Below are positions 3,905 to 63,233 of a stretch of 64,000 nucleotides of DNA, one piece after another (position 1 is the stretch's first letter; each line of letters begins with the position of its first letter). Origin of the DNA: Candidatus Omnitrophota bacterium. Its GTDB lineage: Bacteria; Omnitrophota; Gorgyraeia; Zapsychrales; Zapsychraceae. The notes under the pieces were generated by a model. It saw only the letters and a program-made list of their open reading frames with translations. It had not been told where the DNA came from and made no database searches. The position numbers and the translations under genes were made by a program. Location: the NCBI GenBank assembly GCA_021108075.1, contig JAIORP010000171.1, forward strand, positions 68,041-132,040. Direction: 5' to 3'.

Positions 3905-4006
3905 TACCAATTCCATTAAATAATGACCAACTCCAATTCTGCTTTTCTCGACGATTTAGCGAGAATATCAGAATTAAGATAGAACAATTTATTAATGAAT
4001 TTGGTA
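3905..4006 (-). mobile_element. MITE-like element, subtype C (102 bp), in the proA-proB spacer
   Basis: TACCAATTCCATTAAATAATGACCAACTCCAATTCTGCTTTTCTCGACGATTTAGCGAGAATATCAGAATTAAGATAGAACAATTTATTAATGAATTTGGTA flanked by TAA/TAA. Confidence 0.8.
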
Positions 4007-4055
4007 TAAGAATAAAAATCCGGTTCTTTTTATTAAAATAAAGACTCACAACACC

Positions 4056-5144
4056 TTATCGTTGAGCTAAAACCAAGTTATCGCGATGGATCGCTTCCAG
4101 CTTGCCGCGTTTGTCTTTCATTTGATATAAATCGGCAATAGAATAATTCACAATACCCCGGGCAATCTCATGTTTCACCTGATCACAAACAACCACCACA
4201 TCTCCCTGCTTAAAATGTCCTTTCCAACTCACAACACCCGGCAAGAGAAGGCTGCGCCGACCGGTCAATAGCGCCGCCTGGGCCCCTTGATCAATAATGA
4301 TAAAGCCCTTTGGTTTAACCCCGAACGAGATCCAATGTTTGCGCGCCAAAAGCTTTTCCTTCTTCTCACTAAAAAATGTTCCGATCCGTTCACCCCCCAA
4401 TACCCGGGACAGAACATCTTCTGTCTCGCCATTGGCGATGATGCAGGGAATGTTCGCGTGAGTCGCTATTTTAATCGCCTCAAGCTTGGCAATCATCCCG
4501 CCTTTTGCAATGTGTTTCTTCTTCGTTCCGGAAGCAATGCTCTCAATCTCGTCTGTGATCTCTTTAATCTCTTTAAAAAAATACCTGGTTCCGTCCTTGA
4601 TATCATACAAACCCTCGACGTCAGACAGAAGCAGCAACAAATCAGCCCCGATCAGACCCGCAACCAGGGCGGACAACCTGTCATTATCGCCGAACTTAAT
4701 TTCTTCGGTTGAGATGGTATCGTTCTCATTTACAATCGGAACAATCTTGTTCGAGAAGCAGGCATTTAAAGTGTCACGCGCATTGTTATACCGAGTACGA
4801 TTGTCAAAATCATCCCACGTTAACAATATCTGAGCGCAACAACTCCCATGTTTCTTAAAAAAATTAAGATACTTATTCATTAAAATGGTTTGACCCGTCG
4901 CGGCCAAGGCTTGCAATGTGGCCAAGTTCGCATTGCGGGTCATGTGATTCATCGCCCCCATTCCAAACACAATCGCTCCGGAACTAACCAATACCACATC
5001 GATATTCTTTTGCCTGGCCTGACAAATCTGTTCGACCAAAGACCGCAGGCGCGCCACACGCGGTTTCATCCTGTACGTGGCGATGACACTTGAGCCGACT
5101 TTGATAACAACCCGTTTTATTGGTCGCGGGAACTTTCTTGGCAT
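4056..5144 (-). CDS. proB: glutamate 5-kinase with C-terminal PUA domain
   Basis: Amino-acid kinase fold (VIKVGSS..., GGMxxK) plus a PUA-like C-terminus. The 5' end overlaps obg by 28 nt as annotated; the true start may be an internal Met. Confidence 0.8.
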   Translation of the reverse strand: MPRKFPRPIKRVVIKVGSSVIATYRMKPRVARLRSLVEQICQARQKNIDVVLVSSGAIVFGMGAMNHMTRNANLATLQALAATGQTILMNKYLNFFKKHGSCCAQILLTWDDFDNRTRYNNARDTLNACFSNKIVPIVNENDTISTEEIKFGDNDRLSALVAGLIGADLLLLLSDVEGLYDIKDGTRYFFKEIKEITDEIESIASGTKKKHIAKGGMIAKLEAIKIATHANIPCIIANGETEDVLSRVLGGERIGTFFSEKKEKLLARKHWISFGVKPKGFIIIDQGAQAALLTGRRSLLLPGVVSWKGHFKQGDVVVVCDQVKHEIARGIVNYSIADLYQMKDKRGKLEAIHRDNLVLAQR

Positions 5145-15935: not shown

Positions 15936-16658
15936 TTCTGCCTCCTGTTTTGAGCCACCTTCTACTTGATCAATTCCAGGAATTAAAATGAAATAATAAT
16001 GACATTGCTTTAGCGGAATTTTTCAAGCCATTGGCTCATGGTTTTCATACTGCCATGTACTCTGCCTGTGCTTCAAAACATTACTAGAATTCTATTATCG
16101 ACCCCCTTTCCGTGTCAAATCATATATATTATTTTTAAGAACAACTGTTCGATCTATTTTCTGCAACTTCAGATTGAATGGCAGGGCGGGATAGCACGCA
16201 CACCACCAGAATCGTCGGCATCTCCCTATCAAATTGTCAAAAAATCTATTTTTCACGATCATTTTCAATCTCCTAACACCCAAAAAAAAACCTACTCCTT
16301 CAATAAGGAATAGGTTTAAAATCACAAAAATACACTAAATTTTCGTTAGCGGCAACTGGCTACCCTTTTCAGGGCCCTGTAGTTTTGTGTCCCATCCTTA
16401 CGGAAGGTTTACCTTTATCACCAGACGCTATTGCGTCAATTGAAGTATAACATGCTAAAGTTCGCGATGTCAACGTCACCAGGAAAAAAATTCCACTTTT
16501 TCGCCCAATCAACGTATTCTTTTATTGCCCCCTATACTATAAAAGCAGATCATAATAAATATTTCCCTTTTCTTTCCATGTTTTATGTGGCATAACTGTA
16601 AATAAACATGGCCTCCGTCATCCATCTTGTTCAACTTTAAAGGAGTATATATAATAAT

Positions 16659-26919: not shown

Positions 26920-26999
26920 TACCAAATCCATTAATAAATTGCTCTATCTTAATTCTGAAAAGCAGAATTAATTTTTGTCATTATTTGATGGAATTGGTA
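26920..26999 (+). mobile_element. MITE-like element, subtype A (80 bp), in the mrdA-rodA spacer
   Basis: TACCAAATCCATTAATAAAT...ATTATTTGATGGAATTGGTA flanked by TTA/TTA direct repeats. It ends 7 bp upstream of the rodA start codon. Confidence 0.8.
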
Positions 27000-40347: not shown

Positions 40348-40427
40348 TACCAAATCCATTAATAAATTGTTCTATCTTAATTCTGAAAAGCAAAATTGGT
40401 TTTGGTCATTATTTAATAAAATTGGTA
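40348..40427 (+). mobile_element. MITE-like element, subtype A (80 bp)
   Basis: TACCAAATCCATTAATAAATTGTTCTATCTTAATTCTGAAAAGCAAAATTGG...AATAAAATTGGTA flanked by a TCA/TCA 3-bp duplication. Confidence 0.8.
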
Positions 40428-40430
40428 TCA

Positions 40431-41222
40431 TTATTGTGATAATTCTTTCGCTCTCTTACGCGCGGCTTTTATCGCGTTTTTGTAAACCAACGCCATCTGG
40501 CCGGCATGTAAAACATCCAAAGCCGCCTGGGTTGTCCCCCCTCTGGATGTGACCCGTTGGCGCAATGTTGCGGCATCCTCATGCGCTGACTCCAGGAGTT
40601 CCAGGCTTCCTTTGAGCGTCTGCCGAACCAATTGTTGGGCGACGTGTTGTTCAAATCCAAGTGATCGCGCCGCCGCCATCAAACATTCAATAAAGAAAAA
40701 AACATAGGCAGGGCCGCTGCCGGAAACCGCAGTAATACCATCCATCTCTTTTTCTTGCACAACGACGGTCGTTCCCACACAATTAAAAATCTTTTTCACC
40801 ATGCCTAAATCTTTTTTCAAGGCGTGAGAACCCGCGCAAATAGCGGTGACGCCAAACTGGACCTGAGCCGGTAAATTCGGCATTGTCCGGACCACCCGGC
40901 AATGCGTGCCGATTCTTTTCGTTATATAATCTATCGTAATCCCGGCAGCAATGGACACAACCAAATGCTTTTTCGTTATAAAAGGCTGCAGGGTCGTCAA
41001 AAGCTCATCAAATATCTGAGGTTTAACAGCTAAAATAATGATATCCGACTGAGACAATAACGACTGGAGATCCAATGATTGAACCTGATATTCCCGCACC
41101 AGATTACGGCATTTCTTTTTATCTGGATCCGTTATATACACCTGATAGTCCTGGTGAATTCCAGATACAATAGCAGAACCCATATTGCCGGCCCCGACAA
41201 ATCCAACGCTTTTTTGTTTCAT
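40431..41222 (-). CDS. proC: pyrroline-5-carboxylate reductase
   Basis: N-terminal Rossmann GFVGAGNMGSAI and a ProC dimerisation C-terminus. Confidence 0.85.
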   Translation of the reverse strand: MKQKSVGFVGAGNMGSAIVSGIHQDYQVYITDPDKKKCRNLVREYQVQSLDLQSLLSQSDIIILAVKPQIFDELLTTLQPFITKKHLVVSIAAGITIDYITKRIGTHCRVVRTMPNLPAQVQFGVTAICAGSHALKKDLGMVKKIFNCVGTTVVVQEKEMDGITAVSGSGPAYVFFFIECLMAAARSLGFEQHVAQQLVRQTLKGSLELLESAHEDAATLRQRVTSRGGTTQAALDVLHAGQMALVYKNAIKAARKRAKELSQ

Positions 41223-41414
41223 TTTCTATAAACCATTGATCTAAAATAATATTTGATTTTGTAAAATCTTGACCAAGTAAATTATCATAAATGTCGTATG
41301 GAGTCAATCTTGTATTAAAGGTGAATAAATTTTATAGTAATCAGGAAAATCATAATAAGATTAATAGTAATTAAGACGTGATCAAACGTGTTGATGCCAC
41401 TATGCCGCGTATTT

Positions 41415-41599
41415 ATACCAAATCCATTAAATAATGACCAAAGTCATTATAATATTCTCGACGCTTTAACGAAAATAACACCTTTTAAAATAGGACAATT
41501 ATACCAATTCCATTAAATAATGACCAATGCCAATTCTGCTTTTCAGAATTAAGATAAAACAATTTATTAATGGATTTGATATTATTTAACGTATTTGGT
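41415..41599 (+). mobile_element. MITE-like element, subtype B (102 bp), interrupted by a nested subtype-A copy
   Basis: B-type left end and internal ATATTCTCGACG...TTTAA...CGAGAATA palindrome; B-type right end resumes after the insert. Outer TSD is TTA/TTA. Confidence 0.75.
41501..41580 (-). mobile_element. nested MITE-like element, subtype A (80 bp), inserted into the B copy
   Basis: TACCAATTCCATTAAATAATGACCAATGCCAATTCTGCTTTTCAGAATTAAGATAAAACAATTTATTAATGGATTTGATA. Flanked by TTA/TTA where the uninterrupted B element (copy at 62426) has a single TTA. Confidence 0.75.
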
Positions 41600-41600
41600 A

Positions 41601-42689
41601 TTATTCCTGATTTGAATACATTTTCACAAATTCTTTCTCAAATGTCGGCCAATCAAAACTTTTTTCGGCTATAACAGACAATTGATCTCCCGCTTCAATC
41701 TTTTGATCGGGCAACGGTGACGTGTTGATGGTCTCTCCGCGAATATGCGCTAAGGCATTAAAAGGGATGTTCAACCGGCCAGAAATATCCAAGGCCGTTT
41801 TAACAAATTCCCCCCAGGTCCATCCGACTAGTTGAGCCGGCGATATCGTTTGAGTATTCGGCCCTTCACTGTTGGTCAAAATATGCTGAACAACTGATGA
41901 TGAATGGGCATCCTGGCATTCCTGTACAGCGGCCAGTAACTCAAGATTCTGAATGATCCCAATGGCTTTTTTGGAAAACATCCATTGATTTTTCGGTTCA
42001 ACAAGAATATAAATGACCTGTGCATCCTGACCGGCAAAGCGCAACACCAGATCAACAAGACGCGACGTCGCCAAGTCTGACTCAGGGGTACAAGCATCCG
42101 CAGGAAAAATCAAAACGCATTTATTGTCCTGCAAAGCGGCCTGTTCGTATGTGCGTTTTTCATGACTGTATCCATGAATAAAATGAATTTTATTATGTTT
42201 GGCTAATAGGGTCGGCGACAGCTCCGTCATATTGCTGTCAATAATGCAAATGCCGACATCCGGTTCCCGGGAAACGAGCTCGTGCACAAACAATTCAAAA
42301 TTTTCTCCTGGATAATTAAAAATCACGTACCCATCTTTGTAGGGATTCTTCAACATGCCCAACCTCCTTTGATCAGCAATATACTGCTTTAAATCAACAG
42401 CATGACTGATCACAACGCCCAAACAAGCCATGCCCATTATTCCGAATAACATTGTCAGGATTCTTCCAGCTGTTGTCTGTGCCGGCGCATTCCCGTATCC
42501 AATGGTTGTTTCGGTTTGCCAGACCTGCCATACCGCCTCAACCCAAGAAATATTTTCTGTCACCTTTATCCCCAGCACAAAGAGAGCTGAGATGATCAAT
42601 AGATACAAAATAAACTCAACCACGACCAAGATGGGAAGCGGCAAGTTATTTTTACTCCTAACTTTTAATAAGAGCCAGCGGGCAAACAT
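41601..42689 (-). CDS. K+ channel (two-TM pore, TTIGYGN filter) with C-terminal RCK-like domain; start trimmed
   Basis: TTIGYGN selectivity filter between two TM helices, with a ~230-aa Rossmann-like cytoplasmic domain. The ORF-track start at 42872 runs into a MITE. The internal Met MFARWLL... is preceded by AGGAGG, so the start was set to about 42689. Confidence 0.55.
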   Translation of the reverse strand: MFARWLLLKVRSKNNLPLPILVVVEFILYLLIISALFVLGIKVTENISWVEAVWQVWQTETTIGYGNAPAQTTAGRILTMLFGIMGMACLGVVISHAVDLKQYIADQRRLGMLKNPYKDGYVIFNYPGENFELFVHELVSREPDVGICIIDSNMTELSPTLLAKHNKIHFIHGYSHEKRTYEQAALQDNKCVLIFPADACTPESDLATSRLVDLVLRFAGQDAQVIYILVEPKNQWMFSKKAIGIIQNLELLAAVQECQDAHSSSVVQHILTNSEGPNTQTISPAQLVGWTWGEFVKTALDISGRLNIPFNALAHIRGETINTSPLPDQKIEAGDQLSVIAEKSFDWPTFEKEFVKMYSNQE

Positions 42690-42825: not shown

Positions 42826-43027
42826 TACCAATGCCATTGAATCTCCTCGGAGCAAAGCTCAGAGGCATTCACTCCATTGAATAATGACCAAAACCGATTC
42901 CGCTTTTCTCGACGCTAAGGCAAGAATATCAGAATTAAAATAGAACAATTATTTAACCCGGAAAACGCAATGGGATCTAAAACTCGTCGCAATTGCTCCG
43001 TTACTCCCGGGGTTAATGGATTTGATA
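42826..43027 (-). mobile_element. degenerate MITE-like element (subtype C backbone with two internal insertions/duplications), 202 bp
   Basis: Termini TACCAATGCCATTGAA.../...TTAATGGATTTGATA with a TTA/TTA TSD. Internal CTTTTCTCGACGCTAAGGCAAGAATATCAGAATTAAAATAGAAC is the C core. Extra ~30 bp and ~55 bp segments are present, the latter CCCGG...CCGGG-flanked. Confidence 0.6.
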
Positions 43028-52089: not shown

Positions 52090-52191
52090 TACCAAATCCA
52101 TTAATAAATTGTTCTATCTTAATTCTGATATTCTCGCTAAATCGTCGAGAAAAGCAGAATTGATTTTGGTCATTATTTAATGGAATTGGTA
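52090..52191 (+). mobile_element. MITE-like element, subtype C (102 bp)
   Basis: Near-exact reverse complement of the copy at 3905-4006, including the internal TATTCTCGCTAAATCGTCGAGAA segment. Flanks are ATA/TTA. Confidence 0.8.
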
Positions 52192-56474: not shown

Positions 56475-56575
56475 TACCAAATCCATTAAATAATTGTCCT
56501 ATTTGAACACCAATATTCTCGTTTAAACGTCGAGAATATCATACTGACTTTGGCAATTATTTAATGAATTTGGTA
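56475..56575 (-). mobile_element. MITE-like element, subtype B (101 bp)
   Basis: Reverse complement of the 62426 copy, with central palindrome AATATTCTCGTTTAAACGTCGAGAATAT. TSD is TTA/TTA. Confidence 0.8.
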
Positions 56576-57430
56576 TTATAAATTGTTTATGGATCTAAAA
56601 ATGGAAGAATAATCCTGATCCTCTAATCCCATTTCTAAACTTTTTCTGATGACATTTGTTAATGCGCGCATTAATTGTGTATCAATGTTCTGCTCTTGGG
56701 CTTCTTTAATAATTAAAGACACGTCTTTTAACAGGTGTTTGGTTGGGAAATTCGGATTCGAGAAATCACGTTTGATCCATCCTTCAAATTTTTTATCATA
56801 CATCGGAGCGTACAATGAACTTTTTTTAAGAATCGTATTAAAGACCTCGACCGGAACGCCTTTTTTCTCAACCATGCCCAAGCTAAAAGAAAAAGCATAC
56901 GCATGGGCAGCAATCAGATGATTCAATGCTAACTTAATGGTTGCGGCCATACCCACTTGACCGATGTAAAAAGACGGGCCTAAAACATCCAGATAATCTT
57001 TTTGTGCCTGATACAGGCCAGAATCCCCGCCAACCATGATCAGCAGGGCGCCCTTGCTTGTTTCATTTCGGCTCCCTAATACTGGGGCTTCAAGGTATTC
57101 CCCTCCTTTAGACCTAATATATTCGTCCAGGTCAACACTTTCTTTCGAGGTAATGGTACCCATCTGAAGGATCAACTTATTCTCAAAAACCAAATCATCC
57201 TTTTTGATAAGCGCATCAATCGCGCGCTTTTCGGATAAGACCAATAAAATCCTATCTGAATGTTCCAACGCAACGCGAATATTATCCGCCACATGGATAC
57301 CCATGGCGCTTAATTTAAGCGCCTTCTCTTTCGTCCGGTTATAGACCATAAGGTCAAAACCTTGCTGTGATAAACGCCGCGCAATGGCACTGCCTAAAGT
57401 TCCTGTTCCAATAAGAGTTAATTTTTTCAT
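56576..57430 (-). CDS. NAD(P)-dependent 3-hydroxyisobutyrate/6-phosphogluconate dehydrogenase-family oxidoreductase
   Basis: N-terminal Rossmann LIGTGTLGSAIARRL and a HIBADH-family C-terminal helical domain. Confidence 0.7.
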   Translation of the reverse strand: MKKLTLIGTGTLGSAIARRLSQQGFDLMVYNRTKEKALKLSAMGIHVADNIRVALEHSDRILLVLSEKRAIDALIKKDDLVFENKLILQMGTITSKESVDLDEYIRSKGGEYLEAPVLGSRNETSKGALLIMVGGDSGLYQAQKDYLDVLGPSFYIGQVGMAATIKLALNHLIAAHAYAFSFSLGMVEKKGVPVEVFNTILKKSSLYAPMYDKKFEGWIKRDFSNPNFPTKHLLKDVSLIIKEAQEQNIDTQLMRALTNVIRKSLEMGLEDQDYSSIFRSINNL

Positions 57431-62425: not shown

Positions 62426-62526
62426 TACCAAATCCATTAAATAATTACCAAAATCATTATGATATTCTCGACGTTTAAACGAGAATATTGGTATTCGAAT
62501 AGGACAATTATTTAATGGATTGGGTA
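62426..62526 (+). mobile_element. MITE-like element, subtype B (101 bp)
   Basis: TACCAAATCCATTAAATAATTACCAAAATCATTATGATATTCTCGACGTTTAAACGAGAATATTGG...GGACAATTATTTAATGGATTGGGTA with a TAA/TAA TSD. Confidence 0.8.
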
Positions 62527-62720: not shown

Positions 62721-63233
62721 CTAGGGGTTTCTTCGTTGCTGTTGGCGATAATGACGTCTTCGTTCCCTAAAATCTTCCCGGCGGTCCCGAATATCTTCAC
62801 GACGATCCCGAATGTCTTCGCGACGATCAGCCCGAATATTTCTTTTTAATTTCTTCATTCGTGCTCTAATTTTCCGCGCTTTACCATATTCTCCGTTTTT
62901 TATCGCTTCTCTAAAATTACGACGCATTTGACGCATCATTCTGTTCTTTATCTTATCATCACGTCTATCCCGAATATCTTCACGACGGTCCCGAATATCT
63001 TCGCGGCGGTCCCAACGGTCTTCCAGACGGTCATACTTATCTTCCCAACGATCCCGCCAGCCTCTGTGTATTCGAGGCCTGCTTTGAAACTCTGATGTGC
63101 CCGATGCCCCCTCTGTCGCGGGGGTTGCGCCCTCTTCGACACTCTCAGCAAAAACATTCGCGGCGAACAAAAGAATCATTAAAAGCAGGCACCCGACCCC
63201 ACCTCTCCGCCAAAATCTAACCATTTCACCCAT
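62721..63233 (-). CDS. secreted highly charged repeat protein (RREDIRD heptad blocks flanking a K/R-rich core)
   Basis: Signal peptide MGEMVRFWRRGGVGCLLLMILLFAANVFA. Two DRREDIRDRREDIRDRR blocks are encoded by 21-bp tandem DNA repeats (62771-62825 and 62961-63025). Confidence 0.35.
   Translation of the reverse strand: MGEMVRFWRRGGVGCLLLMILLFAANVFAESVEEGATPATEGASGTSEFQSRPRIHRGWRDRWEDKYDRLEDRWDRREDIRDRREDIRDRRDDKIKNRMMRQMRRNFREAIKNGEYGKARKIRARMKKLKRNIRADRREDIRDRREDIRDRREDFRERRRHYRQQQRRNP
62961..63025. repeat. 21-bp tandem repeat x3 inside the CDS (CG(G/A)CGGTCCCGAATATCTTC(A/G)); a second x2.5 block lies at 62771-62825
   Basis: Direct reading of the sequence; it encodes the REDIRDR heptads. 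Confidence 0.7.

Follow-up and report, generated by a model that had tools for sequence, protein, structure and literature searches.

Nested MITEs with IS630-type termini and a 3-bp TNA target-site duplication in a Candidatus Omnitrophota genome

Introduction

RUP of Streptococcus pneumoniae, which is associated with IS630-Spn1, duplicates TA on insertion, and this TA is not part of the element. RUP and the MITEPlu5/ERIC-like elements of Photorhabdus are intergenic, multicopy hairpins of approximately 100-125 bp with IS630-type termini and are presumed to be mobilized in trans; in the MITEPlu5/ERIC-like elements the duplicated TA lies outside the element, and duplication of TA has also been described for other IS630-type elements and their MITEs (PMC6267812). 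In cyanobacteria, the Nezha MITEs of 130-170 bp, which are associated with ISNpu3-like elements, have termini in common with a full-length insertion sequence (IS) of another species, and their mobility was inferred from a comparison of filled with empty sites (PMC3184786). Among the plant MITEs, Stowaway (Tc1/mariner) duplicates TA, and Tourist (PIF/Harbinger) duplicates TWA. Nested and adjacent MITE multimers are well documented in plants and have been used to read the target and the pre-insertion sequence (PMC5172404, with reference to Jiang and Wessler 2001).

A duplication of a different length has been reported in Deinococcus, where IS630 members with the terminal repeat TACGGACTCCGATTAA are flanked by 3-nt direct repeats (TGA, TAA or TCA; PMC10017437). 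The Deinococcus paper was the only one in the literature searched in which this 3-nt direct repeat was found; no publication was found that combines 'IS630 family' with 'TNA', and none on MITEs in Omnitrophota.

The elements described here lie in a 64-kb stretch of DNA from a member of this uncultured phylum, the whole of which is referred to as the window. They resemble the IS630 ISs with 3-nt TNA repeats, namely ISDrpg7 and ISDrpg8 of Deinococcus radiopugnans (PMC10017437), the element of plasmid pKAM643_2 and ISAli3 of Azospirillum, in having termini of the form TAC(C)A...ATTAA and 3-bp TNA repeats, and 15 of their terminal bases are identical to those of metagenomic members. Unlike these ISs, the window elements are only 80-102 bp long and have no transposase, their cores are unrelated to a transposase gene except in the sub-terminal bases, and their host phylum is one in which no autonomous copy has yet been seen. 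With RUP and the MITEPlu5/ERIC-like elements they share the hairpin structure, the intergenic location, the multiple copies and the IS630-type termini; in contrast to both, TA lies inside the element and 3 bp (TNA) are duplicated. They are comparable with Nezha, by its description, in having the termini of a full-length IS known from another species. In comparison with the plant MITEs, the host is bacterial and the elements are much shorter; they resemble Tourist in the 3-bp duplication of TTA or TAA and Stowaway in the probable transposase superfamily, so that a Tourist-type duplication appears to be paired with an IS630/Tc1-mariner-type lineage and not with PIF/Harbinger.

The MITE family in the window

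The terminal 20-mer TACCAAATCCATTAAATAAT (TACCAAWTCCATTAAWWAAT) has 16 matches in the window at up to three mismatches, compared with 0.03 expected from shuffles. This 20-bp repeat is found at both ends of every copy, and all 16 matches pair into eight elements, one of them nested; the terminal repeat that is split at the nested locus is thus not a chance match. The elements start and finish with TA (TACCAAWTCCATTAA...TTAATGGWTTGGTA), are non-coding, measure 80, 101 or 102 bp and are overlapped only by spurious short ORFs. All copies are intergenic, in short spacers between co-directional minus-strand genes, and fold as long hairpins (z from -4 to -7, with -4.0 for the nested copy); a scan of Rfam revealed no family matching them. 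The family has the general features of prokaryotic MITEs, being small and non-coding, with terminal inverted repeats, a target-site duplication, dispersed copies and termini shared with ISs.

Three forms are present, designated A-short (three copies, starting at 26920, 40348 and 41502), A-long (two copies, at 3905 and 52090) and B (three copies, at 56475, 62426 and 41416). The A-short copies outside the nested locus are both 80 bp long and on the minus strand, at 26920-26999 (flanked by TTA/TTA) and at 40348-40427 (flanked by TCA/TCA); the latter follows directly on the proC stop codon and is missing from the orthologous spacer of a related contig, L078. A-long, of 102 bp, consists of A-short with an additional 22-bp central stem-loop, and its copies are found at 3905-4006 (plus strand, TAA/TAA) and 52090-52191 (minus strand, ATA/TTA, with one mismatch). 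The two intact B copies of 101 bp, identical to each other at 94 of 101 positions, are located at 62426-62526 (plus strand, TAA/TAA), which served as the reference for the pre-insertion site, and at 56475-56575 (minus strand, TTA/TTA), where the right triplet is the stop codon of an ORF (56576-57430, minus strand). B also contains the central stem-loop, is identical to A-long at 83 of 102 positions (81%) in the same orientation, and has the same termini. An initial annotation of this DNA had distinguished A and B as two types; on this similarity they are subfamilies of one family and not separate elements, and the nested event is a same-orientation self-insertion within the family.

A degenerate A-long-type copy occupies 42826-43027 on the plus strand, flanked by TTA/TTA. 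Both of its terminal repeats are interrupted by unique, GC-richer DNA at roughly mirror-image positions, the left one by 30 bp (42843-42872) and the right one by 56 bp (42957-43012, CCCGG...CCGGGG). A search of the window and of the related loci gave no second copy of either insert.

Two features of the window unconnected with the MITEs were also observed. A c-di-GMP-I riboswitch aptamer (Rfam RF01051, 60.6 bits, E = 2e-9) is located at 16348-16423 on the minus strand. An ORF at 62721-63233 (minus strand) contains 21-bp tandem repeats (62743-63075) that encode DRREDIR heptads, and the small protein that it encodes is highly charged and has a hydrophobic segment at the N terminus.

Structure of the nested locus

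At 41416-41600 a host B element, flanked by TTA/TTA, encloses a complete A-short element at 41502-41581, which is likewise flanked by TTA/TTA. The left copy of the host duplication is the TTA at 41413-41415, read as ...cgtatTTA|TACCAAATCC, and is the same triplet as the right copy at 41601-41603. On the minus strand, the right copy is the TAA stop codon of a gene encoding an Ion_trans_2 channel (41601-42689, minus strand), and an open frame of 437 codons terminates on it. The first part of the host (41416-41501, plus strand) comprises the left terminal repeat, the core and bases 1-4 of the right repeat. The intact B copies, 62426-62526 and 56475-56575 (reverse complement), are collinear with it up to ...GGACAATTA, and it ends with ...AATAGGACAATTA, in which the target TTA of the nested insertion occupies 41499-41501 by direct reading.

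The nested A element (80 bp, plus strand; TACCAATTCC...GGATTTGATA) has both of its terminal repeats, the left end reading TACCAATTCCATTAAATAAT / TACCAATTCCATTAAATAATGACC and the right end ATTTATTAATGGATTTGATA. It is identical at 71-73 of 80 positions to the A-short copies at 26920-26999 and 40348-40427, both taken as reverse complements. It is followed by a second TTA at 41582-41584, made by the nested insertion, where intact B copies have a single TTA (...CAATTATTTAATGG...). The host then resumes with the last 16 bp of its right terminal repeat (TTTAACGTATTTGGTA; 41585-41600, plus strand), as placed by MAFFT, and the 20-mer at 41581-41600 matches the repeat with two mismatches.

This is the arrangement that the initial annotation had described, although all of its coordinates were one base too low. 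The same annotation had assigned the nested element the opposite orientation, which is correct only when the A copies at 26920 and 40348 are taken as the reference; the nested A and its host B share one orientation, with the homologous ends collinear.

The nested MITE is situated upstream of a promoter-like motif, TTGACT...TATGATAAT, at about 41270-41310 on the minus strand, which precedes proC and is left intact. The motif is conserved in L078 at about 4030-4080.

Reconstruction of the pre-insertion site

Deletion of 41502-41584, that is, of the A element together with one TTA (80 + 3 bp), leaves a 102-bp B element with two 20-bp terminal inverted repeats, and the junction then reads ...GGACAATTATTTAACGTATTTGG... 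This reconstructed B can be aligned over its full length with both intact copies (62426-62526 and, as the reverse complement, 56475-56575), with 86 matches in 106 columns. When the unedited sequences are aligned with MAFFT, the intact B copies receive one gap of 83 columns, equal to 80 bp plus 3 bp. Among 57 other termini matching ...TTTAATGGWWTTGGTA in the window and in related loci, a doubled TTA (TTATTA) stands at the insertion point in only one. As expected of a nested MITE multimer, the inner element is complete and has a duplication of its own, and its removal restores the outer element exactly.

The pairwise alignments suggested in the initial annotation gave the same result: the B sequence is continuous across the insert, a clean pre-insertion site can be rebuilt and the TTA is duplicated relative to the intact copies. 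Transposition of an A-type into a B-type MITE, duplication of 3 bp and the presence of B before the arrival of A, all of which had been proposed on first inspection, are borne out by this anatomy and reconstruction, as is the contrast between a single TTA in intact B copies and a TTA on either side of the insert.

A 2-bp TA duplication, as in canonical IS630 elements and Stowaway, was considered and rejected. The host B would in that case need an extra TATTA that is found in no other copy; its pre-insertion sequence would have read ...CAATTATATTATTTAA..., with five bases unknown from other copies, whereas the 3-bp model adds and removes nothing. Duplication of TA is also ruled out by the empty site of pKAM643_2, which is without the TA. 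Reconstruction of the nested copy thus settles the element boundaries and places the terminal TA inside the element.

Target-site duplication

The triplets outside TACC...GGTA in the window are TAA/TAA, TTA/TTA, TCA/TCA, TTA/TTA, TTA/TTA (nested copy), TTA/TTA, ATA/TTA, TTA/TTA and TAA/TAA. Identical triplets (TAA, TTA or TCA) therefore flank seven of the eight window elements as well as the nested copy. When the elements of the window and of related MAG loci in which both flanks are TAA or TTA are taken together, the flanks are concordant in 23 of 27 (14 with TAA/TAA and nine with TTA/TTA, against four discordant; binomial P = 1.6e-4), and a further two elements have TCA/TCA. Discordant flanks, such as TAA/TTA, are found in a few members, most of which are composite or degenerate copies. 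The flanking repeats are direct and not palindromic, which indicates a duplication and not a target preference around TA.

The duplicated sequence is a 3-bp TNA and not only TTA. The initial proposal of TTA as the target is correct for the nested site, but the target is wider, as illustrated by TCA/TCA at 40348-40427 and by TGA and TCA at full-length ISs.

Relationship to IS630-type insertion sequences

The 15 terminal bases of the MITEs are those of insertion sequences of 1.09-1.11 kb that encode IS630-type (DDE_3) transposases. When species-representative genomes were scanned for the terminal repeat, two MAGs, Ca. Omnitrophota OFTM38 and SRP128015_co1_466 (labelled Planctomycetales), proved to be rich in paired elements of about 102 bp, with dozens of copies. 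On a contig of Psychromonas marina (L012), the sequence TACCAATTCCATTAATTAAT, identical to the MITE repeat at 19 of 20 positions, abuts the stop codon of a transposase gene. The encoded protein contains the motif ...PPYSPELNPIEQVW..., ends with ...HIPPYSPELNPIEQVWSWMRQN...NAWNHF... and matches Pfam DDE_3, and its full Aeromonas homologue matches both DDE_3 and HTH domains.

Metagenomes were scanned with the pattern TACCAAWTCCATTAA-N(155-180)-(reverse complement of PYSPELNP). Seventeen loci were obtained, 11 of which have both ends of an IS of 1,090-1,113 bp, and six of these 11 carry TACCAATTCCATTAA, the 15 terminal bases of the MITEs, exactly at both ends. The similarity between MITEs and ISs extends into the sub-terminal bases. 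Concordant TNA flanks are present in six or seven of ten readable metagenomic copies. In the IS of one metagenomic locus (L073), orfA (HTH) and orfB (DDE) lie in different reading frames, an arrangement typical of IS630 frameshifting.

Full-length relatives on plasmids end with TACCA.../...TGGTA, and six of seven readable copies have matching 3-bp repeats (TGA, TCA, TAA, TTA, TCA and TTA). For the IS of pKAM643_2 from Aeromonas caviae, the site rebuilt with a single TGA is found uninterrupted in more than 120 related plasmids, with 600 of 600 bases matching, and is an exact empty site for an autonomous member. The canonical duplication of TA outside the element is seen neither at the nested insertion nor at the pKAM643_2 site. 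This excludes the canonical type and not the IS630 family, as the duplication matches that of the reported 3-nt TNA subgroup.

The full-length ISs with termini identical to those of the MITEs originate from marine metagenomes and gammaproteobacteria and not from Omnitrophota. A tblastn search with a C-terminal fragment of an IS630 transposase detected no IS630-type transposase gene in the 64-kb window or in approximately 150 kb of related Omnitrophota and 'Planctomycetales' MAG DNA. Judged by their termini and flanking repeats, the window elements are classed here as IS630-derived MITEs of the subgroup that duplicates 3 bp instead of the usual TA. The 3-bp branch of IS630 was already known, and these MITEs are newly added to it, in Omnitrophota.

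Elements of 81-180 bp with TACCAATTCCATTAA... termini and unrelated cores were also noticed in Bdellovibrionales MAGs (L005, L006, L021 and L030) and in Paraglaciecola chathamensis (L042). It would seem that MITEs arose from the same IS630 subgroup independently in several phyla. In two marine sequences, L076 (at about 320-335 when oriented) and L012 (at about 1-480), a 5S rRNA gene with its terminator is closely followed downstream by an IS630-type element.

Proposed history and alternative explanations

The locus can be explained by two successive insertions. The first would have placed a 102-bp copy of the B subfamily in the stop codon of the ion-channel gene, TAA, which was thereby doubled (TTA on the plus strand). 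The second, at a later time, would have brought an 80-bp A-short copy into the right terminal repeat of B, where it duplicated the TTA of positions 17-19 and split the repeat into 4 + 16 bp. On each occasion, an IS630-type transposase may have bound the terminal repeats of about 20 bp and excised the element; integration at TNA with a 3-bp stagger, followed by repair, would double the triplet. The enzyme, acting in trans, would be a transposase of the IS630 family (DDE_3, Tc1/mariner-like) from the subgroup with TACCA.../...TGGTA ends. This explanation as a whole, with insertion of B at the channel stop codon, then of A into B, and with the elements being IS630-derived MITEs mobilized in trans, is given a probability of roughly 0.85. 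The sequences themselves show how the locus is built, that B preceded A, that 3 bp were duplicated and that the termini are identical to those of IS630-type ISs; the transposase responsible, its persistence in this genome and the dates of the insertions are inferred.

Three other explanations have to be weighed against two successive insertions. A and B have the same orientation, common termini and 81% identity, which would provide homology for recombination, and tandem, adjacent and truncated arrays exist in related genomes (L011 2060-2356, L029 1157-1363 and L032). The locus might then be a composite produced by recombination or deletion between adjacent same-orientation members, for instance a tandem B-A-B, with no transposition into B. 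We consider such an origin very improbable, since a hybrid would be expected from recombination between homologous termini, and not an entire element inside a duplicated triplet in the middle of a repeat; here, A is complete to both last bases and flanked by a perfect TTA/TTA, and the B fragments add up to exactly 102 bp with no base missing or extra. Slightly less probable still is an assembly artefact, in which short reads of different MITE copies would have been joined into a chimera. The window is identical to part of NODE_6 (147,778 bp) of ENA assembly ERZ26872899 (with ProC identical to NCBI MCD4781509.1 and IleRS to NCBI MCD4781507.1), a short-read SPAdes MAG contig with 13.6x coverage, and contigs of other samples break inside or at the edge of the repeats (L002, L003, L004 and L055). 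However, the junction B-right/TAA/A is independently present in contig L055 of a second assembly (ERZ26872904), and the other A/B junction coincides exactly with the start of contig L002 in a third (ERZ26872896). The B arms and the nested A also carry private substitutions (e.g. the GATA terminus, ATGCC and ACGTAT), and the duplication rule of the family is obeyed exactly, unlike in a random chimera.

The remaining alternative concerns the enzyme and not the anatomy. A 3-bp TNA/TWA duplication with a preference for TTA or TAA is the textbook signature of the IS5 (IS1031/ISL2) and PIF/Harbinger groups, and it is the duplication observed here; the elements could thus be bacterial 'Tourist-like' MITEs moved by a transposase of the IS5 family (IS1031/ISL2 group) or by a PIF/Harbinger-like one. 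Such a source is compatible with the result that no transposase of any kind was found beside these termini in the Omnitrophota data. It is nevertheless improbable, as the 15 terminal bases are those at both ends of complete ISs whose only genes are IS630-type orfA and orfB, the similarity runs on into the sub-terminal bases, and TACCA...-ended elements of the IS630 type demonstrably make 3-bp TNA duplications. Every full-length element recovered encodes an IS630-type protein, and none an IS5- or PIF-type (DDE_Tnp_1/4-like) one, although this recovery was biased because the search pattern required the IS630 motif; in the genome scan, which was free of this bias, nothing but MITEs and the L012 end of the IS630 type was obtained. 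Overall, an IS630-type transposase remains the preferred source of mobility.

Age and distribution

The nested insertion had initially been interpreted as a sign of recent activity, which the comparisons do not support. The nested A is only 71-73 of 80 positions (89-91%) identical to its A-short siblings, no two copies in the window are identical, and the same B/A junction is found in the second assembly (ERZ26872904). No allele with B alone, and no empty allele, was found among the contigs from six samples that carry the exact ProC and channel proteins; one of these contigs confirms a junction, one begins at the other junction, and the remainder break inside the repeats. The host B, too, is diverged: it shares about 81% identity with the other B copies and its core differs by indels at 41470-41490, so that it is an old, decayed copy.

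The closest relative found, L078, is a JGI metagenome contig with a ProC that is 71% identical and with the gene order channel-proC-MTAP-IleRS retained. In L078 there is no MITE after the channel gene or after proC, although the contig is too diverged to provide a base-exact empty site. Its lack of MITEs at both sites indicates that the insertions are specific to the lineage of the window.

Landing sites

Five of the 29 copies have as their duplicated triplet a stop codon that closes an open frame of 80 codons or more; among intergenic TNA sites, the share of such stops is 3.5% (Poisson P about 0.004). These triplets are located at 41601-41603 and 56576-56578 in the window, at 6160 in L018, at 4931 in L035 and at 1370 in L043. 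One further copy (40348-40427, site 40428-40433) lies directly after a stop codon, that of proC, and the IS of pKAM643_2 sits on the TGA of parG. Since TAA and TGA are TNA triplets, stop codons are legitimate targets, and the duplication keeps the stop. The excess could be due to targeting or, equally, to selection, such insertions being harmless.

It had further been suggested that these elements target each other's sites, which the counts do not support. Of the 2,838 TTA/TAA sites of the window, about 2-3% lie in MITE DNA, which accounts for 1.5% of its length, and one of nine insertion events falls there; at least one such insertion is expected about 20% of the time by chance. Comparable arrangements are known from other loci. 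In L076 an IS is inserted at a TAA inside the terminal repeat of another copy, and in L047 an element is followed by TTA and a solo 16-bp remnant of a terminal repeat, the position of which corresponds to that in the window. An IS in L063 lies one TTA past the end of another copy, and abutting or tandem MITEs occur in the MAG contigs L029 and L011. A real preference of the elements for each other's sites is possible.

L047 (MAG CAZIRV01, labelled 'Planctomycetales') also contains a distinct MITE of 89 bp at 1630-1718 (GGATCGGCTCAAAAATAACCTCAACA...GAATGATTCC), which has its own TTA/TTA and is nested in a host that represents a third subfamily of TACCAA-ended MITEs. The terminal motif of this 89-bp element recurs in L011 and L029 and is not found in the window.

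Significance

Apart from the information that it gives on the target site, a nested MITE is ordinary transposon natural history. The nested copy described here is a natural empty-site experiment, which fixes the element boundaries and the 3-bp TNA duplication in an uncultured phylum without a transposition assay, and it ties the family to the less familiar branch of IS630 that duplicates 3 bp. Programs for finding MITEs that expect TA for IS630/Stowaway termini, or PIF/IS5 for TWA, would misclassify these elements. MITE repeats of this kind also break short-read MAG assemblies.

A broader proposal is that the family is still mobile in Omnitrophota, with a real preference for TAA and TGA stop codons and for TTA or TAA in its own terminal repeats. 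We regard this as doubtful, although the stop-codon triplets and the insertions in or beside related terminal repeats in L076, L047 and L063 hint at it. If it were true, copies would pile up as hairpin spacers at the gene ends of a compact genome and might serve there to terminate transcription or to stabilize transcripts.
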